Below are positions 29,642 to 53,728 of a stretch of 64,000 nucleotides of DNA, in pieces. Numbering within the stretch: position 1 is the first letter of the stretch; every line of letters begins with the position of its first letter. The stretch is taken from the IMG/VR virus record IMGVR_UViG_3300028287_000410, positions 1 through 64,000 of that record; one strand, 5' to 3'. A model generated the notes under the pieces. The model saw nothing but the letters and a program-made list of their open reading frames with translations. It was not told the DNA's origin and ran no database searches. The stretch is from a virus. The position numbers and the translations under genes were made by a program.

Positions 29642-30904
29642 ATGACTGATAACGGAACTAAATGTAAATACTTCTGGAACCACGTTGCACTGTTCAACGG
29701 GAAAACTGCTACCCCATGTTGTAGATATGACAGTAGTACTAAGAATGGCAAGACCCCCACTGTTGACATGAAAAAGCCATTTACTACGTTTACAGAATCT
29801 ATACATTCACAAGAATGGGAAACTCTACGTGACAATGCTGAAAAGGGAATAAAAGAACCGGGGTGTTGGAAATGTTATGCAGATGAAGAAAAAGGAAACG
29901 ATTCTTTACGTCTGGTAGCAAACAGAATGTGGGAAGATGAACCTGTTGAACCGCAACTTCGGTATCTTGAAATAAATCTAGGAAATTTCTGCAATCTAGC
30001 ATGTAACATTTGTTGTTCTGATAACAGTAATCTTTGGTATAAAGATGATAAAGAACTGAGTAAAACACCAGAATATCGTAGAGGAACATACCAACCAGAC
30101 CACGAAAAAGGCATCAGTCTAAATTATGATGATTATAAGAATGTAAAACTAATTAAGTTTGTTGGCGGTGAACCGATGATTCACCCAAAGTTTATAACAT
30201 TATTAGACTTCTTAATCGATAATGAATTGCATAACACAATAGAGATACAAGTGTTCACTAACGCAAGTTGGATGCCGAAAGAAAAAGTAATCTCACGTTT
30301 GAAAAAGTTCGCAGTCTCAACTATCAGTTTAAGTGTAGATGGTATAGGACAGGTAAACGACTACTCTCGTTGGCCTAGTAAATGGGCAGTTGTTCATGAA
30401 TCAGTAAAAGAGTGGATCAAAACATCACATGAGAATGAAAATTTCTATGTAAGATGGGAGCCTACTATATCTATTTACAACTCTAATCATATACCTGCAA
30501 TGGTATGTTGGTGGATAGAAACCACTATGTCAGTTACCGGGCTTCCAATGGAAGATGCGTTATACGATCCTCAATCGGACGATATCAATATTATCTTTAA
30601 TAATGTGCTGTGGCCATTGTACATGAAGCCCAACTTATTGCCTACTAGTGACCGGGAATGTGAAAGAATTGATAATGCTATGTCCAAGATATACAATCGC
30701 CATATAGATGTTTCAAGAGACTTTTCTAAACTTATGTTACGTAAGCTAGAGCAGAGATTAGAACAAGCAAAAAGGTTTATTTCACCCGATACGGATAAAG
30801 AAAGTCTAGATACATTCCTCAAGTTCACAAATGATTTGGATAAATTGAGAAATAATAACTTTGCTGAACAACTTCCCATGTTATTTTCTGCATTAAAAAC
30901 TTGA
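29642..30904 (+). CDS. Radical SAM protein with N-terminal twitch-like Cys region
   Basis: PCC...GCWKC, CNLACNIC and VGGEP motifs; TTGACT-17 nt-TAACAT at 29607-29635. Confidence 0.88.
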   Translation: MTDNGTKCKYFWNHVALFNGKTATPCCRYDSSTKNGKTPTVDMKKPFTTFTESIHSQEWETLRDNAEKGIKEPGCWKCYADEEKGNDSLRLVANRMWEDEPVEPQLRYLEINLGNFCNLACNICCSDNSNLWYKDDKELSKTPEYRRGTYQPDHEKGISLNYDDYKNVKLIKFVGGEPMIHPKFITLLDFLIDNELHNTIEIQVFTNASWMPKEKVISRLKKFAVSTISLSVDGIGQVNDYSRWPSKWAVVHESVKEWIKTSHENENFYVRWEPTISIYNSNHIPAMVCWWIETTMSVTGLPMEDALYDPQSDDINIIFNNVLWPLYMKPNLLPTSDRECERIDNAMSKIYNRHIDVSRDFSKLMLRKLEQRLEQAKRFISPDTDKESLDTFLKFTNDLDKLRNNNFAEQLPMLFSALKT

Positions 30905-30959
30905 CAAACTAGACGAATCACACTATAGTAATTAAGTAATCAAAGAGAGGAACTTAATT

Positions 30960-31136
30960 ATGTATACTGTTGAATATGGCTACTACAACTATCCCAAAAA
31001 GACAAAAGAATTCAAAACGTATGAAAGTGCGAAGAAGTTCTTCTATTATATTGGAAAGCGTAACGGTGTAAAGAAAGTCAGTTTCAAATGGCAGGAACTT
31101 GACAAATGCTCAAACCATGCTATATTAATTAAGTAA
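30960..31136 (+). CDS. 58-aa basic hypothetical protein (not in ORF track)
   Basis: GAGAGG SD after a promoter cassette; MYTVEYGYYNYPKKTKEFKTYESAKKFF... Confidence 0.6.
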   Translation: MYTVEYGYYNYPKKTKEFKTYESAKKFFYYIGKRNGVKKVSFKWQELDKCSNHAILIK

Positions 31137-31345: not shown

Positions 31346-31407
31346 AAACTTGACAAATCTTGCGAATCACACTATAGTAATTAAGTAATCAAACAAAGGA
31401 ATACAAT

Positions 31408-32538
31408 ATGTCTGCAAAAGTTTCAACCCACGATATGGATGTTCGTCTAGTTCGCCCGAGCGATATTCGAGCAGAAATTAACTACGCTATGAATCGTAAG
31501 CGCCCAGTCTTCATCTGGGGTCCCCCCGGTATCGGTAAATCTGAGATTGTTGATTCAATCACACAAGAGCGTTCAGGTTACATGATTGACATGCGGCTTG
31601 CTCTTATGGAACCCACTGACTTGCGTGGTATCCCAGTACCGAATATGAATACAGGCTTGATGGAGTGGCTTCCGCCTGCTGACTTGCCTACTCAAGAACT
31701 TGCCGATCAATTCGAATGTATTGTACTATTTCTTGATGAAATGAATCAGGCACCACAGTCTGTACAAGCTGCTGCGTATCAGCTAATTCTTAATCGTCGG
31801 TTGGGTAACTACAAACTTCCTGATAATGTTCTAATCGTTGCCGCAGGCAATCGTGAAAGTGATCGTGGCGTTGCATATCGTATGCCTAGTCCGCTTGCTA
31901 ACCGTTTCGTTCACTTAGAAATGACTACAGATTTCGAAGATTGGCAGACTTGGGCTTTGCAAAACAATATAGATGCTGAGGTTGTAGGCTACGTTACTGC
32001 AAACAAGATGGATCTAATGAACTTTGATCCTCGCACTGCATCACGTGCTTTTGCTACTCCTCGTTCATGGACTTTCGTATCTCAAATGCTTCCAATGGAA
32101 GGTGAGCAAATCTCTGATAGTCGCTTGCACGATTTGATTGCAGGTACTGTCGGTGATGGTATCGCTACTAAGTTCATGGCACACCGTGCGATTTCAGGCA
32201 AACTTCCTAACCCAACAGATATCTTGAATGGTACTGTAAAAACACTAGGTAAAGAAGGTAGTGAAATCTCTGCGATGTTCTCACTGACTGCTTCACTTTG
32301 CTACGAACTACGTGACTTCGTTGATCGTAACGGTAAAGAGAAAATGGATGAGTTGTACAAAATGGCTGACAACTTCTTCCGCTTCATGATGGATAACTTC
32401 GAAACAGAAATGACCGTACTTGGTGGTCGTACTGCACTAAAAGTTTACAAACTCCCACTTGAGCCGCGTAAAGTTCCTTGCATCGAGGAGTTCTTCAAGA
32501 AGTATGGTAAACTAATCATCGAGGCGCATAACGCTTAA
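31408..32538 (+). CDS. MoxR-like AAA+ ATPase
   Basis: Walker A GPPGIGKS, Walker B LFLDEM, AAGNR, LANRF and TPRSW motifs. Confidence 0.92.
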   Translation: MSAKVSTHDMDVRLVRPSDIRAEINYAMNRKRPVFIWGPPGIGKSEIVDSITQERSGYMIDMRLALMEPTDLRGIPVPNMNTGLMEWLPPADLPTQELADQFECIVLFLDEMNQAPQSVQAAAYQLILNRRLGNYKLPDNVLIVAAGNRESDRGVAYRMPSPLANRFVHLEMTTDFEDWQTWALQNNIDAEVVGYVTANKMDLMNFDPRTASRAFATPRSWTFVSQMLPMEGEQISDSRLHDLIAGTVGDGIATKFMAHRAISGKLPNPTDILNGTVKTLGKEGSEISAMFSLTASLCYELRDFVDRNGKEKMDELYKMADNFFRFMMDNFETEMTVLGGRTALKVYKLPLEPRKVPCIEEFFKKYGKLIIEAHNA

Positions 32539-32557: not shown

Positions 32558-32591
32558 AAAGGGGGAAGTGTCTTGACATTTCTCCCTTTTT
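32558..32591 (+). terminator. Terminator hairpin overlapping the next -35 box
   Basis: aaagggggaagtgtc-tt-gacatttctccctttt; a second hairpin at 32528-32556. Confidence 0.7.
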
Positions 32592-32601
32592 ATAGTATAA
32601 T
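32573..32601 (+). promoter_or_regulatory. Consensus sigma70 promoter for the biosynthetic operon
   Basis: TTGACA-17 nt-TATAAT. Confidence 0.8.
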
Positions 32602-32608
32602 AAGAATA

Positions 32609-33976
32609 ATGATATATCAAACATTTAAACAAACTGCAAAAAGATTTCCAAATAAGGATGCACTTATTTGCGGTGACAAAACATACACATATTCAGAACT
32701 AGCGACTAGTGTTGATAACTTGATTGCTGTACTTAGTACGGCATTTATGCCAAATGAGCGTGTACTATTTGCGAGTGAACGTTGGCATAATTATGTGCGT
32801 ATGGTTTTGGCATGTGATGCTCTAGGTGTTACTTTTATGCCGACATATTATGATTTGCCCAAAGCAGTTATCGATGATATATCAAAAGCAAGCAAACCGG
32901 ACCATATCATTCTAAACGAAGATGATGCTATTAATCTTAGACCGCATAATAAGGGATTAGTTTGCGTTAAGGGAAAAGAATACGTTTACACTGTTCTATT
33001 CACTAGCGGTACTACAGGAGCTCCTAAGGCTGTCGCACATAGCAACAAGGCGTGTTATGATGCTTGTATTCAAAACATTGACATATTCAACATGAATGCA
33101 GACGATGTTATTTTAGCTCAACTCCCACCTCCGACAGTAGCAGGCTTATATCTATTCCCACTACCAGCACTTATGATAGGTGCTACGGTTGTCATGGAAG
33201 CATTCAATCCAAGACGCTATGCAGAACTAAATCTAACATATAAACCAACTGTTGGTATTATTGTTCCAGCTATGATTGTTGCTATGAATAGAGTGCGCAG
33301 TTGGCACGAACTTGATATGTCACATTGGCGTGAACTAAGTGTCGGTAGTACAGTTATTCCAGAAGAAATGTTAAACATGTTATTTGACAAGGGTGTTCCA
33401 GTCATACGTGATTTATACGGATGCACTGAAACTCATGTACCTCCGTTTACATATCTAATCGAACCAGATACTCAACACAAGCTACAATTAGAGTGTACTC
33501 CAAACTATCAATACAAACTTGATAGATACGGAGTCATGTGGATCAAAGGCTCACCAGTAATGATGGATTATCTTAATGATGATGCAAAGTTTGACGAGAA
33601 TGGATACTGGTGCACCGGTGATGTATTTGAACGCAGACACAATAAACTATTCTATAAATCACGTCAGAAAGATTTGATTAAAGTGAATAGTTATAATGTA
33701 TCCCCAGTATCAATCGAAAATGCAATTATGGTATTCCCAGATATAGAGGAAGTATGTGTGACGTTTCGAAGCAGGGAAATGTTGGGAGAAGTTGAGATTG
33801 TAGCATTGGTAAAGTCAGAAAAAGAGATAAATATAAGTGAACTACAGTTATCTATCAAAGATAAATTATTCCCTTATGAAATCCCCAAAGAAATAATTAT
33901 TGTTGATGAACCACTTACCAGGAATCAAATGGGGAAAATTCAACGGGAAGCTAACAGAGAGAAATTTGTAACATGA
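32609..33976 (+). CDS. AMP-binding acyl-CoA/acyl-AMP ligase (ANL superfamily)
   Basis: FTSGTTGAPKAV, YGCTE, TGD, KDLIK...VSPVSIE and MGKI motifs. Confidence 0.92.
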   Translation: MIYQTFKQTAKRFPNKDALICGDKTYTYSELATSVDNLIAVLSTAFMPNERVLFASERWHNYVRMVLACDALGVTFMPTYYDLPKAVIDDISKASKPDHIILNEDDAINLRPHNKGLVCVKGKEYVYTVLFTSGTTGAPKAVAHSNKACYDACIQNIDIFNMNADDVILAQLPPPTVAGLYLFPLPALMIGATVVMEAFNPRRYAELNLTYKPTVGIIVPAMIVAMNRVRSWHELDMSHWRELSVGSTVIPEEMLNMLFDKGVPVIRDLYGCTETHVPPFTYLIEPDTQHKLQLECTPNYQYKLDRYGVMWIKGSPVMMDYLNDDAKFDENGYWCTGDVFERRHNKLFYKSRQKDLIKVNSYNVSPVSIENAIMVFPDIEEVCVTFRSREMLGEVEIVALVKSEKEINISELQLSIKDKLFPYEIPKEIIIVDEPLTRNQMGKIQREANREKFVT

Positions 33977-35670
33977 AATCACAGGTAAAAAAGATTATTA
34001 TTTTAGGTGGTGGAGCAGCCGGATGGTTTACTGCTGGTTATCTCAAAACAAAAAATCCTGAAATTGATATTACCCTTATTGAGAGCAAAAAGATCGGTAT
34101 CATTGGAGTTGGAGAATCTACAATCCCACAGTTAGGTGATTTCTTTGCAGAAATGGGTATCGAAGAACGTGATTGGATGTCCAGTACAAATTCACTATAT
34201 AAACTAGGTAATAAATTTGTTGGCTGGAACATTGAAGGTAAACGTCACCACGTATCAAATCATTGGTGGTGTTCTAAGTTTGATGAACAGTACTTTACAT
34301 TTTCTTTTGCTATGCCAGAGAACCAACTAACACGTTCATATTATCATCAAATCAAAACAGACGATTACTTCAACAATTCTAAAGGCGATCCGGGAGTAGA
34401 TGATAAATGGAATGACTATTGGTTACACCTTGAACGTCAAGGTCGTAGAAACTGGTGGGAAATGTCAGAGGATATGTGCGAACAAACCTTCCTGATGGAC
34501 CACAATAAAGCGCCATTTGATATGGATGACAATCAACTAGTAGGTGATTGGCAAGCAAAGACATATCACGTAGATGCAGAACGGTTTCCAGAAGTAGTAC
34601 GTGATAGAGTTGCAATACCAAAAGGTGTTAAACACATTTGGGGGCATGTTGCTGATATTGTAAAATCAGAAGATGGATACATTGAAAAACTTGTACTAGA
34701 AGATGGCTCAGAGCATGAAGCGGACTTGTTCTGCGATGCTACAGGCTTTAACCGTATCCTGACAGGTACAATGGACAACGGTTGGCACGACTACGAGCAT
34801 ATCTTTACACGTGATGCTATCGTGGCGCCAGTTAAGTATAAAGACGTTAAAACAGAAATGCGTCCGTATACACAGTCGTATGCACAAGATGAAGGGTGGA
34901 ATTTCATCATCACTCTATACAATCGTATGGGGTCAGGTTATATTTTTGATCGTACAGAAATTTCACCAGAAGACGCTATGGTGAAGTTTAAAAAGTATTG
35001 GGAAGGGCACGAGTTTATCAAAGAGCCACGACACATTTCTTGGGATTCCGGTCGTATGGAAACTCCTTGGAATAAGAACGTTGTTGGTATCGGTATGGCA
35101 GGAGCGTTTGTTGAGCCAATGGAAGCCAACTCATTATACGTAGCACAGGCATGTATTCAGTTAACTAACCGTATTATCAATCGTGCGAAAGAAGAAAATG
35201 CTATTATTACACCATCACAAATTCACGCATATAACAAAAATATGAGTAAACTAGAAGACGGTATTGCTGACTTTGTTGCGTATCACTTTACACTGTCCGA
35301 CCGAGAAGATACACCGTTCTGGCGTAAACAAAAACAATATGGTATTAACCATAATCACAAAGAAGCGTGTTGGGAACATTACCGTCGGCCTGTGAACTAT
35401 GTAGGTAACGGCGTATACCCAGACTTTATGTGGGCCATGCTTGCTGTGTATATGAACAAGTTTGATGATAGCGTAAAACTAAACACCATCAAACCTGAAC
35501 TAGTAGAAAAAGCAAATATGACTTGGGACTTCATTCATAAGTCAAGTAAAGAGAATGGTCGTTACGCACCACACGCATATGATTGGCATCGTAAATTTTT
35601 ATTCGACGGCAAATCACACGAAAAAGTATTGGAGGAAGCACTTGCTAAAATATCTAGAAACATTGTTTGA
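33973..35670 (+). CDS. Flavin-dependent halogenase, tryptophan halogenase (PrnA) family
   Basis: GGGAAGW, IGVGEST, YKLGNKF (catalytic-Lys position), DATGF and FVEPMEA motifs. Confidence 0.88.
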   Translation: MKSQVKKIIILGGGAAGWFTAGYLKTKNPEIDITLIESKKIGIIGVGESTIPQLGDFFAEMGIEERDWMSSTNSLYKLGNKFVGWNIEGKRHHVSNHWWCSKFDEQYFTFSFAMPENQLTRSYYHQIKTDDYFNNSKGDPGVDDKWNDYWLHLERQGRRNWWEMSEDMCEQTFLMDHNKAPFDMDDNQLVGDWQAKTYHVDAERFPEVVRDRVAIPKGVKHIWGHVADIVKSEDGYIEKLVLEDGSEHEADLFCDATGFNRILTGTMDNGWHDYEHIFTRDAIVAPVKYKDVKTEMRPYTQSYAQDEGWNFIITLYNRMGSGYIFDRTEISPEDAMVKFKKYWEGHEFIKEPRHISWDSGRMETPWNKNVVGIGMAGAFVEPMEANSLYVAQACIQLTNRIINRAKEENAIITPSQIHAYNKNMSKLEDGIADFVAYHFTLSDREDTPFWRKQKQYGINHNHKEACWEHYRRPVNYVGNGVYPDFMWAMLAVYMNKFDDSVKLNTIKPELVEKANMTWDFIHKSSKENGRYAPHAYDWHRKFLFDGKSHEKVLEEALAKISRNIV

Positions 35671-36442
35671 TAAAATATCATACGAGAGAAGAATGCATAT
35701 TCAGTGGTCGTTTAATGCCATTGTAACTGCAATTGCGGTCCCATACTGTATATATACAGAACAATATGCTATTCTGGGATGGGGATTTTTGTGGGCATAT
35801 CTAGTAATGTGTATCGGTGCAAATGCAGGATTCCATAGATGGGCATCGCATCATAGCTGGAAACCAAGTGAACCAATTAAATGGGTTATGATGACAATGT
35901 TTATGTTTGGATCTCCGGGATCCCCACTAGTGACTGTTTTATTCCACAGATATCATCATAAACATAGTGACCATGAAGACGATCCGCATTCACCACATGT
36001 AATTGGTTGGTTTAGAGGTGCTACAGGTCGCTTCCAAAAGTCAGGCGGATATCTATCTTCTGGCAGAGATATGTTTAAAGAGCCAAGTGTAGTATTCTAT
36101 CACAGACACTACTGGAAGTTCCAAGCCGTTATATATCTGTCTGCATTATTAATTGGTGGTCCTCTATTTTTTGCAATCTTTATCTGTTTCAGTGGTTTCT
36201 ACAATGCAACTATTGCAGGACATATTTTAGATGGGGTTCTATCGCATTATAAGTGGTTAGGTTATCGTTGGTTTGAAACTAAAGATCAGTCGAATAATAA
36301 TCCTATCTTTGCGTGGTTGAGCGGTGGCGAAGCATGGCACAATAATCATCATGCAAAGCCCGGTAGATGGTACTTTGGACACAAGTGGTGGGAATTTGAT
36401 CCTGCTGGCTTTCTAATCTGGGCGGTGTTAAAACGTATTTAA
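35642..36442 (+). CDS. Membrane fatty-acid (delta9-type) desaturase; start probably TTG 35642
   Basis: His boxes HRWASH, HRYHHKHSD and WHNNHH; GGAGG at 35631. Confidence 0.9.
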   Translation: MLKYLETLFDKISYERRMHIQWSFNAIVTAIAVPYCIYTEQYAILGWGFLWAYLVMCIGANAGFHRWASHHSWKPSEPIKWVMMTMFMFGSPGSPLVTVLFHRYHHKHSDHEDDPHSPHVIGWFRGATGRFQKSGGYLSSGRDMFKEPSVVFYHRHYWKFQAVIYLSALLIGGPLFFAIFICFSGFYNATIAGHILDGVLSHYKWLGYRWFETKDQSNNNPIFAWLSGGEAWHNNHHAKPGRWYFGHKWWEFDPAGFLIWAVLKRI

Positions 36443-37042
36443 ATGTTACTTAAAAATTTTACAGGTGCGGACAAGATAGAGTTTTCTTTACATCGAGTAG
36501 ATGAAAGCAACATAGTAGAATTCAAAGAATTCCTTGTTAAATGTGGCAAAGACGGCGGCACTAATAATTCATCATTAAAAGCTATTAAGTTTTGTAAATG
36601 GGGATCAGAGGAAGCGTGGTGGTTCGTAAAACATAAAGATACTATTGTATCTATGTGTGGCGCACATTATCTTCCTCATGTATCTCCAAAATGCTATATG
36701 ATAGCGTATCGTGTATATACTCTTAAAGCATGGAGAGACACCGCATCGTCCACTAAAGACCACAAAATGCTTAATGAATTTCATCACGGTGCAGTACAAC
36801 CGTTTGCAGTAGAATGGTGTTTATCACGTGGTGCTGACACAATTGTTACTACTGTGAATACCGAGAAGAACCTAGTACAAGATCCTAACGGATTAGATTA
36901 TAAGTTTTCCAGAGTAGCAAGAATTATGTTTCCACGTGGAGGGAAATATACATTACTACATAAAGACTTTCTGTTGTATAACAAATATCAGGATGTATGG
37001 AAGCTAAACTACAAAGACTTTAGAACAATGGAACCGCTATGA
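36443..37042 (+). CDS. Hypothetical protein, possibly GNAT/N-acyltransferase-like
   Basis: Beta-strand pattern WWFVKHKDTIVSMCGAH...YRVY and EWCLSRGADTIVTTVN; weak. Confidence 0.45.
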   Translation: MLLKNFTGADKIEFSLHRVDESNIVEFKEFLVKCGKDGGTNNSSLKAIKFCKWGSEEAWWFVKHKDTIVSMCGAHYLPHVSPKCYMIAYRVYTLKAWRDTASSTKDHKMLNEFHHGAVQPFAVEWCLSRGADTIVTTVNTEKNLVQDPNGLDYKFSRVARIMFPRGGKYTLLHKDFLLYNKYQDVWKLNYKDFRTMEPL

Positions 37043-38190
37043 CTGTTTATATCGAAAACATATCCGCTTTTACCCCATTCGGTAACTTAGAACAAACCTG
37101 GAAATCTATTATCAACAATGAAGTTGCGTATGGTCCTATAACTAAATTTGATCCAAATGCTAGTCGTTATACTAGAAGTAAAGTGGCAGGAGAATTTCAT
37201 TTCAATGCAGAAGATTATCCTATCATTACAGAGGCCGAGCGTGACAGATTACCCGAACATATGCAATGGGCATTAGCACTGACAAGTGATTTGATTGGTG
37301 ATAGACAATTACCAGAAGAAAGAACAAGTGTTATTGTATCTCCGGGATTTTCTATGTACTTAGAAAGTCTAAGAGCAAACAGAGAGAATACAGACAATAG
37401 CTATACATTCTGTCCTAATATGATTGCACACAATATCAACATCAAATATGGGTACACAGGACCCAGTACAATGACCATGAGTGCATGTAGTACAGGCATA
37501 TATAGTATTATTATGGGGTGTATGCTTATTGAAACAGGACAAGCAGATTATGTTATTGCAGGGTCAGTTGACCAATGTATCAGCGAAGATGCATTTAAAC
37601 AGATGGGTAAACTACGTGCATTGTCTACGAAGTATAATAATAATCCCACTGTAGCAAGTAGACCTTGGGATAAAAAACGTGACGGACTAGTACTAAGCGA
37701 AGGTGGTGCGCTATTTCTTTTAACCAAAGAAAAAACAGAAAACACTATCTGCGAAATTACAAAATACGCAATGACAAATGACGCATTTCAAGTTGTCGCC
37801 CCACATCCAGAAGGCAAGCATATCGAAAGATGTATGTCACAATGCATCGACAGTAAGCCAGATTTAATTAATGCACACGCAACATCCACACCTATGGGCG
37901 ATGTTGTAGAGTTAGATGCAATTAATAGATTAGGTATGAAAGATGTCTACATAACTGCAAATAAATCACAACTTGGACATATGATGGGCGCTGCTGGTGC
38001 AGTAGAGACAGCAATAAGTGCCATGAGTTTAGTTAATAACACTATAACACCATCACTAAATATTGATATACTAGAAGATAGATATAAACCAAAGTATGTG
38101 ACTACTGCAACAAAACATGACATAAATTCTGTTCTATGTAATAGCTTTGGATTTGGTGGCACTAATGCAAGTATACTATTAACAAAATGA
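37039..38190 (+). CDS. fabF: Beta-ketoacyl-ACP synthase II-like ketosynthase
   Basis: Cys-His-His triad in SACSTG, NAHATST and KSQLGHMMGAAG; NSFGFGGTNAS. Confidence 0.9.
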   Translation: MTVYIENISAFTPFGNLEQTWKSIINNEVAYGPITKFDPNASRYTRSKVAGEFHFNAEDYPIITEAERDRLPEHMQWALALTSDLIGDRQLPEERTSVIVSPGFSMYLESLRANRENTDNSYTFCPNMIAHNINIKYGYTGPSTMTMSACSTGIYSIIMGCMLIETGQADYVIAGSVDQCISEDAFKQMGKLRALSTKYNNNPTVASRPWDKKRDGLVLSEGGALFLLTKEKTENTICEITKYAMTNDAFQVVAPHPEGKHIERCMSQCIDSKPDLINAHATSTPMGDVVELDAINRLGMKDVYITANKSQLGHMMGAAGAVETAISAMSLVNNTITPSLNIDILEDRYKPKYVTTATKHDINSVLCNSFGFGGTNASILLTK

Positions 38191-38585
38191 CATTTCAAGA
38201 TTTATTTAAAAACAACCCTAACATATGGATGCCAATAGCAGACATGTTAGACAATGTTTTAACATCAGGGATAAACGATAGATTTACACGCGCTGAACGT
38301 GAATACATGTTTGCACACTTTTCAAAAGAAAATAGTTGCGACTTTTGCTATGAACATCATATAGATTTCGCATATGATTTAGGTTATAACAATAGTATTA
38401 CAGTCAAAGACTTGATGGACGAAGACGCATTAGAAAATATATTTTGGATCAAAAATATTGCACTGTTAGTCAATACTGCGATAAAAGAGTATGATATAAA
38501 ACAAATTAATTCAGAAAATAAAAAACTGAAGAATACAACTATAAAAGAATACGGTTATAACTATAAAAAGAATATACGGAGTTAA
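38187..38585 (+). CDS. AhpD/carboxymuconolactone decarboxylase-like protein
   Basis: RAERE...SKENSCDFCYEHH (CxxCxxxH) motif. Confidence 0.7.
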   Translation: MTFQDLFKNNPNIWMPIADMLDNVLTSGINDRFTRAEREYMFAHFSKENSCDFCYEHHIDFAYDLGYNNSITVKDLMDEDALENIFWIKNIALLVNTAIKEYDIKQINSENKKLKNTTIKEYGYNYKKNIRS

Positions 38586-38587
38586 AA

Positions 38588-39313
38588 ATGAAAAACATAA
38601 GCATCGATAACTTAAATGAAGTTATAGAAAATCTAATTTATTTACCTCTCAATATCAGTAATCCACCTGAGGGATGCATTGACGGGATAGAAGAAATAAC
38701 AGATGACATGATGAAGTGGGACGAATTCAGATCCTGTAACCTTATCCCCCTTGCTATCGACTACAGAGAAAAAGATGTCATTGAATGGGTGCCAAAATTT
38801 ATTGATAAATTTCCAAAACTAAAGACTTGGCTAGAACAAGAAGTTTTTACTAAGGTAGGTTTTGGTAGAACACTGATAATCGTTACAGACCCAGATGAAA
38901 CAAATGCTCCCCATATAGATGCGGCGCAGGATACATTCGTAGGTATATTAAATCATAAACTGCGATATGTATTACAAGGAAACGTAAGTGACTTAGTTTT
39001 CATTTCTAAGGATAATACGACTGTTATCCCAGAAATCGACAAACCTTATATTATGAATGGTAAGTGGCCACATATGATGCACAATACATACGATAAAAGA
39101 AAATACACATTAGCTATTGGTGCACCTTGGGAGCCAAGCATTGACGATGAACAATATAGAAACCTAATAACAGATGCTTATAGTAAATTTAATAAAAATT
39201 ATATTGGGTCAACTGGCATTGAGCTACCAGAAAACTGGAAGGAAATGTTTGAGGACTATGATAAAAATAAATCAAACCATGTCGATGCCAAAAATTTTAT
39301 TGAAAAAACTTGA
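38588..39313 (+). CDS. Putative 2OG-Fe(II)/cupin oxygenase
   Basis: PHID (HxD), distal WPHMMHN and KYTLAIG. Confidence 0.55.
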   Translation: MKNISIDNLNEVIENLIYLPLNISNPPEGCIDGIEEITDDMMKWDEFRSCNLIPLAIDYREKDVIEWVPKFIDKFPKLKTWLEQEVFTKVGFGRTLIIVTDPDETNAPHIDAAQDTFVGILNHKLRYVLQGNVSDLVFISKDNTTVIPEIDKPYIMNGKWPHMMHNTYDKRKYTLAIGAPWEPSIDDEQYRNLITDAYSKFNKNYIGSTGIELPENWKEMFEDYDKNKSNHVDAKNFIEKT

Positions 39314-39338
39314 CAAACTGAAACGCAGATGCTATATT
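39310..39338 (+). promoter_or_regulatory. sigma70-type promoter related to the cassette family
   Basis: AAAACTTGACAAA, 17-nt spacer, TATATT. Confidence 0.7.
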
Positions 39339-39370: not shown

Positions 39371-40711
39371 ATGCAAATCGAACCTAAGAAAATTGTAACA
39401 GAAGACGATTTTAACTCTGTGTTAGATGATCTACTCAAAGAAAATGGTATCGAGGTTGATGAAAACTCAGAAGAGCCTGTAGTATTTGAATACACTGATC
39501 AGGAAGTTAAAGAAATGATTGTGTCAGGTCGTGTTCGCATGTTGATTAAGCATCCGTTTTTCGGTACTCTCGCTACACGACTAAAACTAGTCGAAGCTGA
39601 ATGGTGTCCGACTGCTGCTGTTGATGGTAAGCACTTCTATTATAACTGTGATTTCTTCCGTACACTAACTTCTGAAGAAATTGACTTTGTTGTAGGTCAT
39701 GAAGTATTTCACTGTGTATATGAACACTGTGGTGAAAATGGCCGTCTGATGGATTATAAAGATGAAAATCGTGATCCTAAGTTGTGGAACATTGCTGCTG
39801 ATTATAAAGTTAATCAAGGCTGTGTAGAAGCTAAAATTGGCACAATGCCCAAGATGGCTCTTTATGATCGCAAGTATTACAAATCATATACAGAAGAAAT
39901 TTATGCTGATCTACTTCAACAGAAAGAAGATGGCAAAGACTTTAGTGGCACTGAAACACTTGATGAACATTTGTTCGGTGATGGTGATGGTGCTGGTAAA
40001 GAAGGTCAAGGTAACGATCCTTCAGGACGTAAAGCACCTATTAAAATATCTAAAGAAGAAGCTAAAGCTATCAAGGATCAGATGAAACAAGCTGTTCTAC
40101 AAGCTGCACAATCTGCTGGAGCAGGTAATCTACCGGGTGATGTAAAACGTATCATTAAAGATATGACTGAACCAAAGATGGATTGGCGTGAGCATTTAAA
40201 TCTTAATATTCAATCTTCACTAAAATCTGACTTCACATGGATGCGTCAATCACGTAAGTCACGTTCACTAGGTATCTATCTACCGGGAACTGACAATGAT
40301 TTTCGGGTTGATGCTGCTATTGGTATTGATGTTTCTCTTTCTATCTCACACGATATGGTACGTGACTTTATGGGAGAAATCTCAGGCATCATGGATCAAT
40401 TTCAAGATTTTCGTCTGCGTGTGTGGACTTTCGATACTGAAGTGTATGAAGAATCTTTTAAAGAATTTACACCTATGAACGCAGATGAAATCAAAGACTA
40501 TGAAATCATTGGCTGTGGCGGAACTGACTTCGAATGTAATTTTAACTTCATGGAAGAAAACGAGATTATTCCTGACAAGTTTATCATGTTCACAGATGGT
40601 TATCCGTTTGGATCATGGGGCAACGAAGCATACTGTGATACACTATTCGTTATTCACGGTTCACCTAACATCACCCCACCATTCGGCGACCACACATACT
40701 ACTCTAACTAA
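39371..40711 (+). CDS. DUF2201-like metallopeptidase plus VWA domain protein (MoxR partner)
   Basis: PFFG, PTAAVDG, HEVFH, WNIAAD, MIDAS-like DVSLS, GGTDF and FTDG motifs. Confidence 0.88.
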   Translation: MQIEPKKIVTEDDFNSVLDDLLKENGIEVDENSEEPVVFEYTDQEVKEMIVSGRVRMLIKHPFFGTLATRLKLVEAEWCPTAAVDGKHFYYNCDFFRTLTSEEIDFVVGHEVFHCVYEHCGENGRLMDYKDENRDPKLWNIAADYKVNQGCVEAKIGTMPKMALYDRKYYKSYTEEIYADLLQQKEDGKDFSGTETLDEHLFGDGDGAGKEGQGNDPSGRKAPIKISKEEAKAIKDQMKQAVLQAAQSAGAGNLPGDVKRIIKDMTEPKMDWREHLNLNIQSSLKSDFTWMRQSRKSRSLGIYLPGTDNDFRVDAAIGIDVSLSISHDMVRDFMGEISGIMDQFQDFRLRVWTFDTEVYEESFKEFTPMNADEIKDYEIIGCGGTDFECNFNFMEENEIIPDKFIMFTDGYPFGSWGNEAYCDTLFVIHGSPNITPPFGDHTYYSN

Positions 40712-40727
40712 AAGTATAAATATCACT

Positions 40728-41267
40728 ATGAGCGATACACTACTCTTGAATGCTGATGGCGCACCTCTGAGCGTTACTCCACTTTCAACCCTCACGTGGC
40801 AAGAAAGTATCAAACTTATCTGGCTAGACAAAATAAATGTCCTAGAATGGCATGAAGATTGGGAGGTTCGATCTCCCAATCATACTTTACTTGTACCAGC
40901 AGTCATATCAGTACGTGACTATGTTAAGAGCGCAGGTGATGTTAATTTCTCTCGCAAGAATATCTTTATAAGAGACAATCACAAATGCCAATACTGCCTA
41001 GAGACATTCAAAACATCAGAACTTACCCTAGACCACGTTATTCCTAGATCCAGAGGCGGTAAAACAAGTTGGACAAACATCGTAAGTGCATGTAAAAAAT
41101 GCAATCATGCAAAAGCGAATAGAATGGATATTCGACCAGTAATAATGCCGAAACAACCTAATCTTTATCAGATGATAGGTAATAAGAATTTTACACTATC
41201 AATCAGACATGGAATCTGGCTTAAATACCTTAACTGGCCAGAAGAATTTGTTCGCAGAGTAGCATAA
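40728..41267 (+). CDS. HNH endonuclease (McrA-like); start revised to 40728
   Basis: LLLNAD, RDNHKCQYC, TLDHVIPRSRGG and CKKCN motifs; TATAAATA at 40715-40722. Confidence 0.9.
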   Translation: MSDTLLLNADGAPLSVTPLSTLTWQESIKLIWLDKINVLEWHEDWEVRSPNHTLLVPAVISVRDYVKSAGDVNFSRKNIFIRDNHKCQYCLETFKTSELTLDHVIPRSRGGKTSWTNIVSACKKCNHAKANRMDIRPVIMPKQPNLYQMIGNKNFTLSIRHGIWLKYLNWPEEFVRRVA

Positions 41268-41280
41268 CAACAAAAAAGTG

Positions 41281-41309
41281 TTGACAATCACAAAATAATT
41301 TAGTATAAT
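41281..41309 (+). promoter_or_regulatory. sigma70-type promoter
   Basis: TTGACA-17 nt-TATAAT. Confidence 0.8.
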
Positions 41310-44235: not shown

Positions 44236-45291
44236 TTATTCTACTAAGTTTAGACCGTCTATAACATCCCCATCAATGACCATATCAACCGGATGTTTTT
44301 CACCATAGAATTCATTCTGTTCCCAGCACTGGTCTTCTTCATTCCAATCAAACCAAGGGCTAACTGCTAATACGTAGTTAGTCCTTTTGTACCCTGGCAT
44401 TGGCTTTGCTACATATGGGCGATGTGTCACATATGTATCCCAAACATACCAATTTCCGGGAGTAAATGACTTTGTTCCATAATCTTCAATTTCAATACCA
44501 TATGCATTCTCTGGATTATCAAGTGCTAAGTTTATACGAAGTTCGTAAAACCAGCTTTCATCTCTGTGCCATAGGAATTTGTTTGCAGTCTCTTGTGTTG
44601 CTTTATCATCGATGCCTTTAATCTGAGCAATGCGACTACGCACAGGCGAAGACTTAATTCTATCCCTTAGTGTGCCTAAATATTCATGTCCAGAACATTC
44701 ACTCCAATTTCTAAATCCCCATGTGTCTGGGTACGTATCTTTGTTGATACGTTCACCTACGTCTTTTCTATCTTCGTATGTATCTAAAAGTTCATTTAGT
44801 ACAGTATCGTCAATTATACCATGTTGATGTAAATATCTAAACCCATGATGCATCCCAAACTCCTGGGTCTCACTCCACAAGTCTTTATCTAGACGTTTTT
44901 CCATAATCTTTTCAAATAATGAAAAGTTCTTCATAAACAGTTCATCTGGAATGTTATTTCTAGGATACCCTAATGTCTGTGCATTCTTTGGAATATTGTC
45001 ATATCTATATGTAGGATTAGTCACCAAACTCAATCCACCATAGTTAGAACTTCTAGCAAATTTACCTTGATATATGTTTAGAAACCCATACCAACCATAC
45101 TTTACGAATGCGTCTTCGATACTGTCTCTTAGTGTGTCCACATCTAATTTCGTATCTTCAAATTCGAACAATACACCTTCTTTGCTTGGTTTCATTGTTT
45201 TAGCATATTTGTCAGTATCCAGAGTTTCTGCAATCCAGGCATGGACTGCTTTTCTATCTGGGCAATCTTTTATGTAAAATCTTTTCTTCAT
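44236..45291 (-). CDS. Putative 2OG-Fe(II) oxygenase
   Basis: WHRDE, distal THRP and RTNYVL in a beta-rich C-terminal domain. Confidence 0.55.
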   Translation of the reverse strand: MKKRFYIKDCPDRKAVHAWIAETLDTDKYAKTMKPSKEGVLFEFEDTKLDVDTLRDSIEDAFVKYGWYGFLNIYQGKFARSSNYGGLSLVTNPTYRYDNIPKNAQTLGYPRNNIPDELFMKNFSLFEKIMEKRLDKDLWSETQEFGMHHGFRYLHQHGIIDDTVLNELLDTYEDRKDVGERINKDTYPDTWGFRNWSECSGHEYLGTLRDRIKSSPVRSRIAQIKGIDDKATQETANKFLWHRDESWFYELRINLALDNPENAYGIEIEDYGTKSFTPGNWYVWDTYVTHRPYVAKPMPGYKRTNYVLAVSPWFDWNEEDQCWEQNEFYGEKHPVDMVIDGDVIDGLNLVE

Positions 45292-46463
45292 TTTTTATAA
45301 CTCACATCTCCGGGATAGATAGGAACCATTGCGCCGGGCGCACGTTTTGGAATTTTACTGTCAGCACTAGATACACAACTATCTGAAATACACACCTTAG
45401 GCGCATCGAATAGTTTAAACCCACTCTCAATATACCCTAAGGGCTCGTCAGAACAACTGTAAGAGCGTTTAATAGACCCATCAGGCTCACGTATAATAAT
45501 ACCCTTAAACCCGCTTGTACAATCCCAACCTTTAAACTTGTTAAAGTTAAACGCATTAAAGCGTTCTGCTTGGTCCATGTAGTACTTGTCACCTTTACTA
45601 TCTTCGAACTCTACTTGCATGATAGGTGGGACATTCTTATCATCGCCATTAATCATATCCATCTTCCACATGCTTCCTGTGCGTGGCTTTGGACGCATTG
45701 CTTTAATAGTATTCGCTTTTTCAATAGTATCAGTGTACGCACGTTGTGGCATACCATTCTGCATCATCTTTAGTTGTTCGTCTGTGTATCCGTCTACAAC
45801 ACGTGATGCAGTAGGATCTGACTGTGGTTTTAGAGTAACATTGATTCCACGCTCATGAAAGTACATTGCGTTATTCCAATCTCTATCAAACCAGTCTGGT
45901 ACAAGTACCATATTGATTGTTACTTGCACATCATGTTCCATACAGAATAGAAGTTTGTCAGCAAATTCATCCATCTTTGCATATTCACTGTGATAAGATG
46001 CAGTAATACTTGCACGATGAAACTTTGCAACAATGTCACAATATTTCTGAAACCAATCCATCTTACGTGCCATATTTGTTGTCATATGAACAGAGGTATA
46101 ATTAGTGTTATCGACATCATCAGCCAAATGCTGCAAAATATCCAAGTATCCTGGATGAAAAGTAGGCTCACCGCCAGACAAAGAAAAATGGAAACTATTA
46201 AAACTGTTATCACGTGCTTGCCTCTTAATTTCATCTATGGTCGCTAGACACAACTCTGTTGGTCTATGATCTTTTCTATCACTTCTGGCATAAGGCCAGC
46301 AGTACGAACACTTGTAGTTACAGAAACGTCCTAATAACCAAGACACTGAAAACAAATCCCTGTATAAAAGTGTTCGTTGACCTACCTTAACGATATCATC
46401 ATACGGCGTTGCTGTAAAGTCGTATTGTGACCAGTAGTCTGCATCTTTTTCAATCTTATCCAT
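45288..46463 (-). CDS. Radical SAM protein with C-terminal Cys cluster
   Basis: CNYKCSYC and SGGEPT motifs; C-terminal C...C...CxxxxC. Confidence 0.88.
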   Translation of the reverse strand: MDKIEKDADYWSQYDFTATPYDDIVKVGQRTLLYRDLFSVSWLLGRFCNYKCSYCWPYARSDRKDHRPTELCLATIDEIKRQARDNSFNSFHFSLSGGEPTFHPGYLDILQHLADDVDNTNYTSVHMTTNMARKMDWFQKYCDIVAKFHRASITASYHSEYAKMDEFADKLLFCMEHDVQVTINMVLVPDWFDRDWNNAMYFHERGINVTLKPQSDPTASRVVDGYTDEQLKMMQNGMPQRAYTDTIEKANTIKAMRPKPRTGSMWKMDMINGDDKNVPPIMQVEFEDSKGDKYYMDQAERFNAFNFNKFKGWDCTSGFKGIIIREPDGSIKRSYSCSDEPLGYIESGFKLFDAPKVCISDSCVSSADSKIPKRAPGAMVPIYPGDVSYKK

Positions 46464-46465
46464 TA

Positions 46466-50689: not shown

Positions 50690-51486
50690 TTTGTTGTTTT
50701 AGCCCAACTCTTTAAAATTAAATCTTCAAAATCTGATCCACCATATTGTCCATGAACAATCATATGCACACGAACTTCATCAGTATCATTCATTACTGCA
50801 TGACGATGACCTACATTCATCTTAAACATATTACCTGGCTTCCACGGAACATACGCATTGTCATCAATCATTTTAAAATGACAATTTTCTGGATTGTTCA
50901 ACGATATATTTAGTGGTCCTAATTTGTTGTGTTCATAATCTGTATGTGGTGTTATATAACCTCCCGGCTCTAAGTACATGTAACGAACTCTATCGAATGC
51001 TCTGTAACCCGGAATAGATTTAATCATCTTAACAGTCTCTGGACATTTATCTGCAATTTCAGTCCAATGATATGCTGCTCTTGCTTCACGTTCATCTGCA
51101 TACACAAAGCCTGCTGCGGCAACATCTTTACTATCCCAATGTTGAGATACATGCTTACCTAACCCATGTAGTGTCAGGGAGCGCCATCCTCTGTGTCCAT
51201 AGTCATCGGGGTTGTTCTCATCATAATCGTTCTTTCTATGTTGAATTGCTTCATCGTAAACTGCCATTGCTTCATTATAACATGCATTCCAATCAAACTC
51301 AGGGACATCTAATTTTAACCATGGGATACCTGACTCGTGTGTAACCCATTTTGCTTGTCTGAAACGTGCTGATGGTGGGAATCTAGGCTCATTCATCATA
51401 GCATCTACAAATGTACCTGGCATCGTATCAAAGCTATAACTATTTCTATCTTTAAAATGTTCTTCTATTGTTTTTGGGTATTCCAT
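50686..51486 (-). CDS. Aspartyl/asparaginyl beta-hydroxylase-like 2OG-Fe(II) oxygenase
   Basis: LEPGGYITPHTD, HRHAVMN and RVHMIVH motifs. Confidence 0.8.
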   Translation of the reverse strand: MEYPKTIEEHFKDRNSYSFDTMPGTFVDAMMNEPRFPPSARFRQAKWVTHESGIPWLKLDVPEFDWNACYNEAMAVYDEAIQHRKNDYDENNPDDYGHRGWRSLTLHGLGKHVSQHWDSKDVAAAGFVYADEREARAAYHWTEIADKCPETVKMIKSIPGYRAFDRVRYMYLEPGGYITPHTDYEHNKLGPLNISLNNPENCHFKMIDDNAYVPWKPGNMFKMNVGHRHAVMNDTDEVRVHMIVHGQYGGSDFEDLILKSWAKTTK

Positions 51487-53697: not shown

Positions 53698-53728
53698 ATT
53701 AACTCCAATACTTTGATTATGTACGTAT

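Follow-up and report, generated by a model that had tools for sequence, protein, structure and literature searches.

A seven-gene operon in an uncultured marine jumbo myophage: a putative pathway for a halogenated acyl compound

Described systems and how the phage locus compares

VirX1 and the genes for a 'tryptophan halogenase' in T4-like cyanophages and in Pelagibacter phage HTVC008M encode, as does the locus studied here, marine myophage flavin-dependent halogenases of the PF04820 family with the catalytic lysine. Iyer et al. 2021 (PMC7824862) predicted a halogenated secondary metabolite as the product of a 10-gene cyanophage halogenase cluster; the same kind of product is predicted for the present cassette, and 2OG oxygenases are sometimes found nearby in both cases. 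The partner genes differ, however, being carbamoyltransferases, a HemK methylase and HAD phosphatases in the cyanophage cluster and a ligase, a ketosynthase (KS), a desaturase and a GNAT-fold protein here, and the halogenases share only 25-30% identity, with the WxWxIP and Fx.Px.SxG motifs non-canonical in the present enzyme. Delta9 desaturases are well established among the auxiliary genes of cyanophages (PMC5776448), and these DesC-like lipid desaturases resemble the enzyme described below in being phage-encoded membrane di-iron proteins with Delta9-type His boxes. In contrast, the present desaturase lies inside a biosynthetic operon, is optional or duplicated in the cassette, and may have as its substrate, in place of a glycerolipid, an acyl chain bound to ACP or CoA.

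Sets of ligase, ACP, KS, desaturase and halogenase are presented in PMC9772203 and PMC10088813 as a standard logic for fatty acid incorporation. The cyanobacterial starter cassettes JamA-JamB-JamC, with the halogenase JamD, and NocH-NocG (PMC10088813, PMC12645471) have this enzyme logic in common with the phage cassette: adenylation by a ligase, an ACP, desaturation of the tethered acyl chain by a membrane enzyme, a KS, and halogenation of an activated carbon by a flavin-dependent enzyme. The likeness is one of logic; unlike the cyanobacterial sets, the present operon is carried by a phage, has no ACP gene inside it, contains a GNAT-fold protein, lacks PKS/NRPS modules and uses a ligase that resembles CoA ligases. 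Since the desaturase is optional in the phage cassette, its halogenase does not depend on an alkyne.

With respect to gene organisation, PeSL motifs are composite terminator/promoter cassettes through which T4-type phages shuffle genes in modules (PMC2839356, PMC4122927). The present locus resembles them in having a stem-loop and an early sigma70-type promoter at the cassette borders, and in that close relatives differ in the genes between the motifs, which may be present, absent or replaced. Unlike in PeSL motifs, the -35 box here falls within the loop and the first gene is apparently leaderless, and the cargo is a multi-enzyme operon of 3-8.5 kb, not a single small ORF or a handful of them. 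The genes on either side, encoding a MoxR ATPase and a peptidase-vWA protein, form a conserved pair in group 2.2 jumbo phages and have been proposed to work in virion assembly (PMC7824862).

The cassette at the MoxR/vWA junction

The window analysed comprises 64,000 nucleotides (positions 1 to 64,000 of IMG/VR virus record IMGVR_UViG_3300028287_000410), and the contig it comes from, 107.8 kb long, is part of the genome of a marine jumbo myophage akin to Atu_ph07 and Phosso. Viral origin was borne out by a T4-type DNA polymerase that shares 50% identity with its counterpart in Sinorhizobium phage Phosso. An ORF scan recovered, on the + strand between 32573 and 39313, all seven of the tightly packed genes that a first-pass annotation had reported there; neighbouring genes overlap by 4 bp or are separated by 0-22 bp, and the seven genes are translationally coupled.

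The single consensus promoter that had been proposed for the operon was recovered from the sequence as a perfect sigma70 element (TTGACA-17-TATAAT, 12/12, at 32573-32601), forming part of a composite terminator/promoter (32558..32601, + strand). A stem-loop at 32558-32589 is followed by a T run, and its loop holds the -35 hexamer TTGACA (32573-32578). The -10 hexamer TATAAT (32596-32601) lies only 7 nt ahead of the ligase ATG, so that the ligase mRNA is probably leaderless, and this layout, with the -35 box embedded in the loop, was retained in 11 of the 13 cassette loci checked. The true ligase start is ATG 32609, its M1 and I2 being invariant among relatives. A start at TTG 32573 was rejected, as that TTG is part of the -35 hexamer.

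Upstream of the cassette lies the gene for a MoxR-type AAA+ ATPase (31408..32538, +; Pfam AAA_5, AAA and a weak bpMoxR match), which has a sigma70 promoter of its own (11/12, at 31350-31378). The protein is 50% identical to the PA5oct ATPase and has 491 relatives in IMG/VR, with a dN/dS of 0.02. Its partner, a metallopeptidase (DUF2201_N) and VWA-like protein (39371..40711, +; PF13203 E 4e-35, PF09967 E 9e-13), follows a sigma70-type promoter (39310..39338, +; 11/12 with a TG extension) that marks the downstream edge of the cassette and resembles the one preceding vWA in relatives lacking the cassette. MoxR, cassette and vWA each have a promoter of their own.

The claim that the cassette was inserted between MoxR and its vWA partner held among 80 related IMG/VR loci: the two genes are adjacent in 25, lying 78-207 bp apart and including relatives whose MoxR is 90-95% identical, while 41 carry a ligase-containing cassette of 3-8.5 kb at the junction. 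In a distant lineage an unrelated acyl-CoA dehydrogenase occupies the same site, which is empty in close relatives. The cassette is best explained as a mobile accessory operon in a clade of marine jumbo myophages whose relatives include Atu_ph07 and Phosso, and it would move by recombination at the PeSL-like motifs.

The cassette is conserved, mosaic and under purifying selection. Its genes were found together in many relatives, as the proposal of a functional cluster had envisaged. The ligase and the GNAT-fold protein orf199 are shared by nearly every form, and halogenase and KS always occur together. Not every form has a desaturase (0, 1 or 2 per cassette), the CxxC protein or the oxygenase; in some, ligase and orf199 occur with neither KS nor desaturase, and one small form has an Aminotran_4 gene beside ligase and orf199. 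Each core gene has a dN/dS of 0.03-0.15, and catalytic residues are invariant across 15-18 distinct relatives. None of the GenBank phages carries the cassette. The pathway had been described as acquired, but the idea of transfer as a block from bacteria gained no support: one scan of cellular genomes, using the halogenase motifs, found no such cluster.

A carrier encoded elsewhere had been suggested for the operon, and an ACP gene was located on the contig at 67218-67382. Phage ACP genes track the cassette: 10 of the 12 records with a cassette have them and none of the 14 without one does (Fisher p about 1e-5, uncorrected for relatedness), an association that may reflect shared ancestry. In five cassette-less relatives the DUF6071 neighbour of the ACP gene is kept and the adjoining cupin-ACP pair is missing. 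The contig's only ACP gene lies 28 kb off, beside a radical SAM gene, and it may serve a radical SAM module instead. A complete 342.6-kb relative encodes AcpS and three ACPs; no FabD, SDR, FabA/Z or flavin reductase was found in that genome.

Enzymes of the cassette

The first gene encodes an ANL-superfamily acyl/aryl-CoA (or acyl-ACP) ligase of 455 aa (32609..33976, +), and its assignment as an AMP ligase was upheld by AMP-binding (E 1e-41) and AMP-binding_C domains and by the motifs TSGTTGAPK, YGCTE, TGD and the A10 Lys; motifs A3, A5, A7, A8 and A10 are conserved. The best NCBIfam model was a long-chain fatty-acid-CoA ligase, under its cut-off, and the best solved relatives were FadD13, 4-coumarate-CoA ligases and MenE. 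Because the enzyme is nearest to these CoA ligases and not to known acyl-ACP ligases, loading of an ACP is a guess.

The flavin-dependent halogenase (565 aa; 33973..35670, +) belongs to the Trp_halogenase family (PF04820 E 6e-90), scoring about 190-200 bits against solved Trp halogenases and VirX1, with Thal, PyrH, VirX1, PrnA and RebH as solved relatives. The 'PrnA-family' label fits this family membership. Two of the three signature motifs of flavin-dependent halogenases deviate, with W-x-F-x-I-[SPT] in place of WxWxIP and a likewise non-canonical F/M-x-E-P-M-E-A/G-N. GGGxxGW, K77 and E381 do not vary among 18 distinct relatives, and dN/dS is about 0.1. The enzyme is of the free-substrate Trp-halogenase type and not of the carrier-dependent PltA type.

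A membrane di-iron desaturase of the SCD/DesC (Delta9) type (249 aa; 35693..36442, +) follows. The reading frame is open from 35555, and the start is probably ATG 35693, rather than an overlapping one at 35555. The Delta9-type call was confirmed by an FA_desaturase domain (E 5e-10), the His boxes HRWASH, HRYHH and HNNHH, and matches to mouse and human SCD1 (E 3e-9); in 15 relatives, a second paralogue among them, none of the eight His in the three boxes varies. A weak relative occurs in Pelagibacter phage Mosig, and tblastn at E <= 0.001 matched no cyanophage record. Unsaturation had been put forward as a property of the product, but it is not a core one: 12 loci with a complete cassette, of the form ligase-halogenase-GNAT-KS-fam5, have no desaturase.

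The near-constant companion of the ligase, orf199 (36443..37042, +), returned no sequence match in Pfam, NCBIfam, PHROG or PDB, and its family comprises 231 clusters among 1.84 billion proteins, with functional annotation absent. It had been called GNAT-like, and its AF2 model (pLDDT 92.4) is of the GNAT fold, as judged by Foldseek (prob 1.0) and VIA (Z 11.1). The N-acyl amino acid synthase FeeM, SbzI of altemicidin biosynthesis and RpaI-type AHL synthases share this fold and are all among the tied matches to the predicted structure, FeeM using acyl-ACP (Z 10.0) and SbzI being carrier-dependent, and the genomic partner of orf199 is an adenylating enzyme. However, orf199 has no detectable sequence similarity to these proteins, and the structural scores do not separate FeeM or the others from ordinary acetyltransferases. 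An acyl-CoA pyrophosphate-binding motif was not recognisable in the sequence. One distant protein, a singleton, is an ANL domain fused to an orf199 domain.

The FabF-like beta-ketoacyl synthase (383 aa; 37039..38190, +) has ketoacyl-synt N and C domains, and its best solved relatives are KAS II (FabF) enzymes. The Cys-His-His triad that had been noted is intact, and C150, H280, H314 and K309 are invariant in 17 relatives. Like bacterial KAS II, the protein combines the two thiolase-fold domains with the triad, the Lys and a GFGG loop; unlike it, the phage enzyme is about 30 residues shorter, scores 255 bits against an equivalog cut-off of 494 for the FabF model, and is phage-borne and linked to a halogenase in a genome without other FAS genes. 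In IMG/VR it is confined to the present phage lineage.

The last two genes are accessory. The small protein orf132 (38187..38585, +), present in only 3-4 loci (L014, L015, L016), was reported as an AhpD-like CxxCxxxH protein; the motif (CDFCYEHH) is there, and the likeness to AhpD was weak, a TIGR04030 AhpD-type HMM reaching only E 0.0012, so that the protein is possibly AhpD/CMD-like. Nothing was matched in PDB or PHROG. Found in only 3 loci, orf241 (38588..39313, +) has an AF2 model (pLDDT 92.0) with the fold of a 2OG-Fe(II) oxygenase and is of the type of Asp/Asn hydroxylases or proline hydroxylases. The HxD..H oxygenase-like call is consistent with this fold and with H109-x-D111...H162, whose three residues are invariant in 23 relatives. 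Foldseek matched the model to proline hydroxylases, P4H and AspH (prob 1.0, TM 0.41-0.50), and the nearest named Atlas clusters are PF05118.

A candidate pathway and the alternative readings

The best interpretation of these data, held with somewhat better than even confidence, is that the cassette encodes a carrier-protein-dependent pathway for a halogenated acyl amide, with a chemistry that we infer as follows. The ANL ligase would adenylate a carboxylic acid and load it onto a phage ACP (or CoA), and the FabF-like KS would append one malonyl unit supplied by the host. As no ketoreductase, dehydratase or FabD of the phage was found, the product would stay a beta-ketoacyl thioester unless host enzymes acted on it. 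The halogenase, with FADH2 made by the host, would then halogenate an activated carbon. Flavin-dependent halogenases act on aromatic or enolate carbons and cannot halogenate an unactivated alkyl chain (PMC9772203, PMC10088813); the site must therefore belong to an enolate, to an aromatic ring or to an alkyne, and the simplest choice is C2 of the beta-keto thioester. In cassettes that have it, the SCD-type desaturase would bring in unsaturation, and orf199 would off-load the acyl group to an amine, giving the acyl amide. In the form of the cassette found in the window, the 2OG oxygenase and the CxxC protein would perform tailoring or redox steps. The product could be a signal, an antimicrobial or a membrane lipid; virion lipidation, also suggested previously, is pure speculation.

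It could be, instead, that the cassette remodels host membrane lipids, a reading considered unlikely but credible. The ligase would turn salvaged free fatty acids into acyl-ACP or acyl-CoA, which the FabF-like enzyme would feed into the host type II FAS for elongation, and the desaturase would raise unsaturation as the cyanophage DesC-like genes do, the halogenase and GNAT protein serving an unrelated purpose. The kinship of the KS with KAS II and of the desaturase with SCD/DesC is as expected, elongation would need the host FAS in a phage without KR, DH and FabD, and both the established cyanophage genes (PMC5776448) and the weak relative in Mosig provide precedent. However, the 12 complete cassettes without a desaturase keep halogenase and KS, other forms retain ligase and orf199 without KS and desaturase, and the KS is far under the FabF cut-off. 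The halogenase-KS linkage, the dedicated ACPs with AcpS, and the GNAT member are left unexplained.

A doubtful alternative is that the halogenase acts on a free aromatic amino acid or indole, which the 2OG oxygenase, or the class IV aminotransferase of other cassette forms, would tailor and which a FeeM-like orf199 would join to acyl-ACP from the ligase and KS. This N-acyl halo-amino-acid pathway would suit a free-substrate halogenase with top scores against Trp 5-, 6- and 7-halogenases, the free-proline hydroxylases that are the best fold matches of orf241, the Aminotran_4 gene adjoining ligase and orf199, and the place of FeeM among the tied GNAT matches. Against it, the C-terminal substrate-binding region of Trp halogenases was unaligned (the PrnA match stops at residue 410), so binding of Trp is unsupported; the halogenase co-varies with the KS and not with amino-acid-tailoring genes, FeeM is undistinguished from ordinary acetyltransferases, and orf241 is rare.

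Quite improbably, the other enzymes would prepare an acyl group that the GNAT protein transfers to a protein of the phage or host or to part of the cell envelope, a possible target being a virion protein handled by the MoxR/vWA chaperones. Many of the top fold matches of the GNAT protein are protein N-terminal or lysine acetyltransferases (RimL, RimI, Naa proteins and the PAT-Acs complex), and the neighbouring genes are those proposed for virion assembly (PMC7824862). The position is, however, explained by a recombination hot spot, given a site that is empty in close relatives and filled by the acyl-CoA dehydrogenase in the distant lineage; the separate promoters also argue against it, and nothing links the cassette to structural genes.

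That the locus is an assembly chimera, which the first-pass annotation had named as grounds for refutation, or a bacterial contaminant fused to phage DNA, has practically negligible probability: nothing was found in its favour, both flanking genes are phage genes, the G+C of the cassette matches that of the remaining contig, gene order and junctions are the same in two other, independent metagenome assemblies (per-gene nucleotide identity 92.7-100% in the cassette and 90-96% in MoxR and vWA), and the same junctions recur in about 40 more distant IMG/VR contigs, including the complete 342.6-kb genome with terminal repeats.

Insertion site and layout of the operon

The seven open reading frames placed at 32573-39313 by the first-pass annotation were all present on the plus strand, joined by 4-bp ATGA overlaps or separated by gaps of 0-22 bp, and two of their start sites were amended. 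A σ70 promoter matching the consensus at 12 of 12 positions (TTGACA-17-TATAAT, 32573-32601) lies at the head of the operon, and the TTG at 32573 is its -35 box; from the sequence the ligase is therefore taken to start at ATG 32609, and both Met1 and Ile2 of that reading frame are invariant among relatives. This ATG is located only 7 nt after the -10 box, and so the cassette transcript is probably leaderless. A stem-loop (32558-32589), followed by a T run, carries the -35 box inside its loop, and the same composite stem-loop/promoter layout recurred at 11 of 13 loci with a cassette, drawn from various clades. The desaturase frame is open from 35555, and its start is probably ATG 35693, which escapes a 116-bp overlap and is preceded by a purine-rich stretch. 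The operon is flanked upstream by a MoxR-type AAA+ ATPase gene (31408-32538) and downstream by a gene for a DUF2201_N metallopeptidase plus VWA-like protein (39371-40711), each with its own 11/12 promoter and an ordinary leader, and the two are parted by 6.8 kb of cassette.

The window covers the opening 64 kb of an IMG/VR virus record 107,762 bp long, with a CheckV completeness of 30%. Its T4-type DNA polymerase (phrog_262) shares 50% identity with the enzyme of Sinorhizobium phage Phosso and 45% with that of Agrobacterium phage Atu_ph07, its MoxR protein shares 50% with the MoxR of Pseudomonas phage PA5oct, and the largest relative is 342,607 bp in length with terminal repeats; these features identify the source as an uncultured marine jumbo myophage. 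MoxR and peptidase-vWA form a chaperone pair typical of the group 2.2 jumbo phages (Iyer et al. 2021, PMC7824862), and both proteins are encoded in the window.

A search with MoxR in IMG/VR gave 491 relatives, and the loci of the best 80 of these were compared. The MoxR and vWA genes were adjacent, 78-207 bp apart, in 25 of the 80 loci, including relatives with a MoxR 90-95% identical to that of the window, while 41 of the 80 carried a ligase-containing cassette of 3.1-8.5 kb at the same junction, 3' of MoxR. At the empty site the MoxR stop codon is followed by a GC-rich stem-loop with a T run, a TTGACA promoter and then vWA, an arrangement of the PeSL type of composite motif, as in T4-type phages, where such motifs mediate gene shuffling (PMC2839356, PMC4122927). 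The proposal that the cluster splits a MoxR/VWA pair is thus well supported, both by the empty and filled sites and by the PeSL-type junction. These empty- and filled-site relatives provide a clean natural case of cargo exchange at a terminator/promoter junction beyond the classical T4-like phages. An assembly chimera, the artefact that the first-pass annotation had named as fatal to the cluster, was rejected, since independent assemblies contain the same cassette.

Other genes were observed around this site. In a distant lineage (loci L074, L076 and L077, MoxR 58% identical) the MoxR-vWA gap holds a gene for a 575-amino-acid acyl-CoA dehydrogenase (about 11126-12853 in L074), and acyl-metabolism cargo has thus settled at this site repeatedly. 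An HNH endonuclease frame (40485-41267) lies directly 3' of the vWA gene and, as called, overlaps its 3' end; the protein is kept downstream of vWA in most relatives at about 180 amino acids, so that the gene probably begins after 40485. Just upstream of MoxR, 29642-30904 encodes a 420-amino-acid protein with a CxxxCxxC motif (CNLACNIC), a likely radical SAM enzyme. Only the two nearest assemblies share it at 98%, and identity elsewhere drops to 23-27%, making it another variable cargo gene. Across the region, σ70 promoters matching at 11-12 of 12 positions precede single genes or small units at 30901-30929, 31099-31126, 31350-31378, 39310-39338 and 41281-41309, and this succession suggests that the whole region is an early hyperplastic zone transcribed by the host RNA polymerase.

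Enzymes encoded by the cassette

Each cassette enzyme is a member of a known family. The ligase belongs to the ANL superfamily, with Pfam AMP-binding (E 1e-41) and AMP-binding_C domains and motifs A3, A5, A7, A8 and the A10 Lys (TSGTTGAPK, YGCTE and TGD in the translation), and its best relatives are CoA ligases.

The halogenase matched Trp_halogenase (PF04820) with 302.6 bits (cut-off 21, E 6e-90), and solved halogenases with 129-202 bits among the 30 chains listed. Its flavin motif GxGxxG (GGGAAGW; G12-G13-G14-x-x-G17-W18) stays unchanged in 18 distinct relatives. K77 (YKLGNKF) and E381 (EPME), which by motif position we take to correspond to the catalytic Lys and Glu, K79 and E346, of PrnA, are likewise invariant among relatives. 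Three signature motifs, including Fx.Px.SxG, serve in the genome mining of flavin-dependent halogenases (PMC12645471), and two of the three are departed from here. In place of WxWxIP the protein has W309-x-F311-x-I313-[S/P/T], the second Trp being replaced by Phe in 18 of 18 relatives, and in place of Fx.Px.SxG it has F/M-x-E-P-M-E-A/G-N-x, in which the Ser and Gly positions are lost. Both divergent motifs are conserved in relatives.

The ketosynthase (KS) contains both Pfam domains of a β-ketoacyl synthase with a two-domain thiolase fold, and its Cys-His-His triad and Lys (C150, H280, H314 and K309) do not vary among 17 relatives; the translation shows the motifs ACSTG, HATSTPMGD, GHMMGAAG and FGFGG. 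The protein scored below the FabF equivalog cut-off of NCBIfam (TIGR03150, 254.6 bits versus 493.75). The desaturase matched FA_desaturase (PF00487, E 5e-10, 39.9 bits, cut-off 29.7) and SCD1 (E 3e-9). The eight His residues of its boxes HRWASH, HRYHH and HNNHH are all invariant in 15 relatives across both paralogues, and it is assigned from sequence as an SCD/DesC-type membrane desaturase with a predicted Δ9 position.

Sequence searches of Pfam, NCBIfam, PHROGs and the PDB gave nothing usable for the remaining proteins, orf199, orf132 and orf241. For orf199 (199 amino acids) an AF2 model built from 28 relatives had a pLDDT of 92.4 and displayed a GNAT fold (Foldseek probability 1.0; VIA Z up to 11.1 over 138-158 residues), with viral GNATs among the structural matches. 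Sorting it into one kind of GNAT enzyme by structure failed, as FeeM (Z 10.0), RpaI (9.7), SbzI, PAT and plain acetyltransferases were tied. In an alignment judged by eye, the canonical acyl-CoA pyrophosphate-binding motif Q/RxxGxG/A was not seen after strand 4. The family comprises 231 clusters in 1.84 billion representatives, nearly all of them unnamed marine metagenome proteins; one singleton joins a distant ANL domain to the orf199 domain, and the N-terminal domains of the other fusions had no family assignment.

The orf241 protein (241 amino acids) carries an HxD...H facial triad (H109, D111 and H162) that is invariant among relatives, and its model (pLDDT 92.0) matched the fold of 2OG-Fe(II) oxygenases, among them proline hydroxylases, P4H and AspH. 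Although there was no Pfam match, an Atlas lead to PF05118 agrees with the oxygenase fold. With its triad and modeled double-stranded β-helix, orf241 is assigned as a 2OG-Fe(II) oxygenase. The orf132 protein (132 amino acids) has the motif CDFCYEHH, that is CxxC(xxxH), and matched the AhpD-type model TIGR04030 at E 0.0012 (19 bits; cut-off 233), making it at best weakly AhpD-like.

Cassette forms and carrier proteins

The forms of the cassette were defined by clustering every open reading frame between MoxR and vWA in the related loci. Twelve loci have complete cassettes of the form ligase-halogenase-GNAT-KS-fam5, none with a desaturase; about 10 have ligase-halogenase-desaturase-GNAT-desaturase-KS; and the window and three others have ligase-halogenase-desaturase-GNAT-KS, with or without orf132 and orf241. 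Smaller forms combine the ligase, the GNAT and a DUF6356 protein with either a second ligase fragment or a class IV aminotransferase, and at one locus (L056) the ligase is present but a GNAT gene is not. The ligase and GNAT are thus found in nearly all forms and the halogenase and KS always occur together, while the desaturases, orf132 and orf241 are accessories. The fam5 proteins (about 270 amino acids; PHROG 2319/3628, no Pfam match) are encoded 3' of KS in the desaturase-less forms and also in minimal forms, at L028 18568-19389, L029 16151-16957 and 16 other loci; the family is absent from the window.

The cassette is evidently mosaic. In locus L016 the flanks are 95-99% identical in protein and the interior genes only 45-79%, and nucleotide identity to the nearest assembly varies from gene to gene between 90% and 100%. 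All core genes had dN/dS values of 0.03-0.15. The operon is conserved, under selection, mobile, driven by its own promoter and composed of intact enzymes, and it co-varies with phage carrier proteins. Co-occurrence in other genomes, on which the first-pass annotation had made the cluster depend, was borne out by the recurrence of cassette forms across the related loci.

The KS family at 62% identity or above was confined to about 32 IMG/VR contigs, all of this phage's lineage. Halogenase relatives fell into 23 clusters of at least 59% identity, a sister tier at 42-48% and ordinary bacterial Trp-halogenase-family proteins at about 30%. A motif-based halogenase scan of 185,579 cellular species genomes, which as a pattern search can miss relatives and does not prove absence, gave one locus, a Marinicaulis MAG with tandem halogenases at 31% identity and no cassette. 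Against GenBank phages, megablast of the region gave zero matches and tblastn gave none for orf199; for KS and ligase it gave only unannotated or host-like records at 22-40% identity, so that KS, ligase and orf199 of the cassette kind are absent from that set. GenBank phages do contain halogenases 25-30% identical (cyanophages, HTVC008M), and a Pelagibacter phage has a weak desaturase match. A literature search found no phage cluster with such gene content. The cassette logic resembles the fatty-acid-incorporating starter cassettes of bacterial natural products; the gene combination, its residence and diversification in jumbo phages, and its distributed ACP and AcpS support appear undescribed.

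The operon itself lacks an acyl carrier protein (ACP) gene, and the suggestion that a carrier might be encoded elsewhere is supported. A candidate ACP gene is located on the same contig beyond the window, at 67218-67382, 28 kb downstream of the operon, within a segment (64714-69410; L011 714-5410) that encodes DUF6071 (-), a cupin (-), a radical SAM protein (+), the 78-amino-acid ACP (+) and then proteins of 333 and 340 amino acids, neither of a known family. The radical SAM-ACP-333-aa module is also found in the complete 342.6-kb relative at 244-246 kb, and that genome encodes three ACPs together with a phosphopantetheinyl transferase of the AcpS type, while FabD, an SDR reductase, FabA/Z and Flavin_Reduct are all absent from it. 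At least one ACP gene was present in 10 of 12 cassette-bearing records versus 0 of 14 cassette-less ones (Fisher p ~1e-5, with the kinship of records ignored). Five cassette-less relatives keep DUF6071 at 64-80% identity and lack the neighboring cupin-ACP pair, and AcpS was found in none of the five largest cassette-less records.

A second phage ACP type was observed in the complete relative at L098 393-2825 (about 33-35.5 kb of that genome), its gene lined up with genes for a nitroreductase-family flavoprotein (a weak match of 25 bits), an IscA-like protein of Fe-S assembly and an ExbB-like protein. The first of these three is a candidate for the flavin reductase that would serve the halogenase.

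Proposed pathway and alternatives

The most likely interpretation of these data is that the ligase would activate an acid and load it onto a phage ACP or CoA, KS would carry out one decarboxylative condensation with host malonyl-ACP, an activated carbon would be the target of the halogenase, and the GNAT-fold orf199 may then move the acyl group onto an amine. The product proposed by the first-pass annotation, a halogenated unsaturated acyl metabolite or N-acyl amide, remains a plausible prediction.

The simplest site of halogenation would be C2 of the β-ketoacyl thioester made by KS, because strict co-variation links the halogenase to KS rather than to the desaturase, and because no KR or DH is encoded. 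Flavin-dependent halogenases are described as acting on electron-rich aromatic or enolate carbons (PMC9772203), one of them, JamD, acts on terminal alkynes (PMC12645471), and the halogenation of alkyl chains belongs to other enzyme classes (PMC10088813). It could be that halogenation falls instead on an aromatic acid used as starter or on an aromatic amino acid that serves as acceptor, and both are real alternatives. For the operon as a whole, an N-acyl halo-amino acid product, remodeling of the host membrane and acylation of a macromolecule all compete with the pathway set out above.

The most specific form of that pathway proposal, which we consider improbable as it stands, is that infected cells contain a phage-made, diffusible halogenated β-keto acyl amide, acting as an analog or antagonist of acyl-amide signals or as an antimicrobial, and that its pathway is spread over the genome (the operon, two or three dedicated ACPs, the cupin and AcpS) and diversified by recombination at promoter/terminator junctions. 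If true, a virus would encode a natural-product pathway that depends on carrier proteins and for which no counterpart has so far been found in cellular genomes.

Auxiliary genes of phages mostly tune host primary metabolism through single enzymes. In this widespread clade of marine jumbo phages, selection maintains an operon of several enzymes whose members are continually shuffled, and the operon is accompanied by phage carrier proteins and a phosphopantetheinyl transferase. Should a discrete halogenated acyl compound be made, the pathway would join the few virus-encoded natural-product pathways, add a new source to the organohalogen chemistry of the ocean, and offer compact, possibly substrate-tolerant enzymes, namely a halogenase whose motifs are unusual, a ketosynthase that stands alone and members of a new GNAT family.

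Elsewhere in the window, a long gap-free operon on the minus strand (44236-64000) encodes large enzymes, including several radical SAM proteins (PHROG matches at 46466-47893 and 52135-53853) and a 1219-amino-acid protein with no PHROG match; another radical SAM gene is located at 5440-6831 (+). The minus-strand operon resembles a further modification or biosynthetic module, distinct from the cassette.
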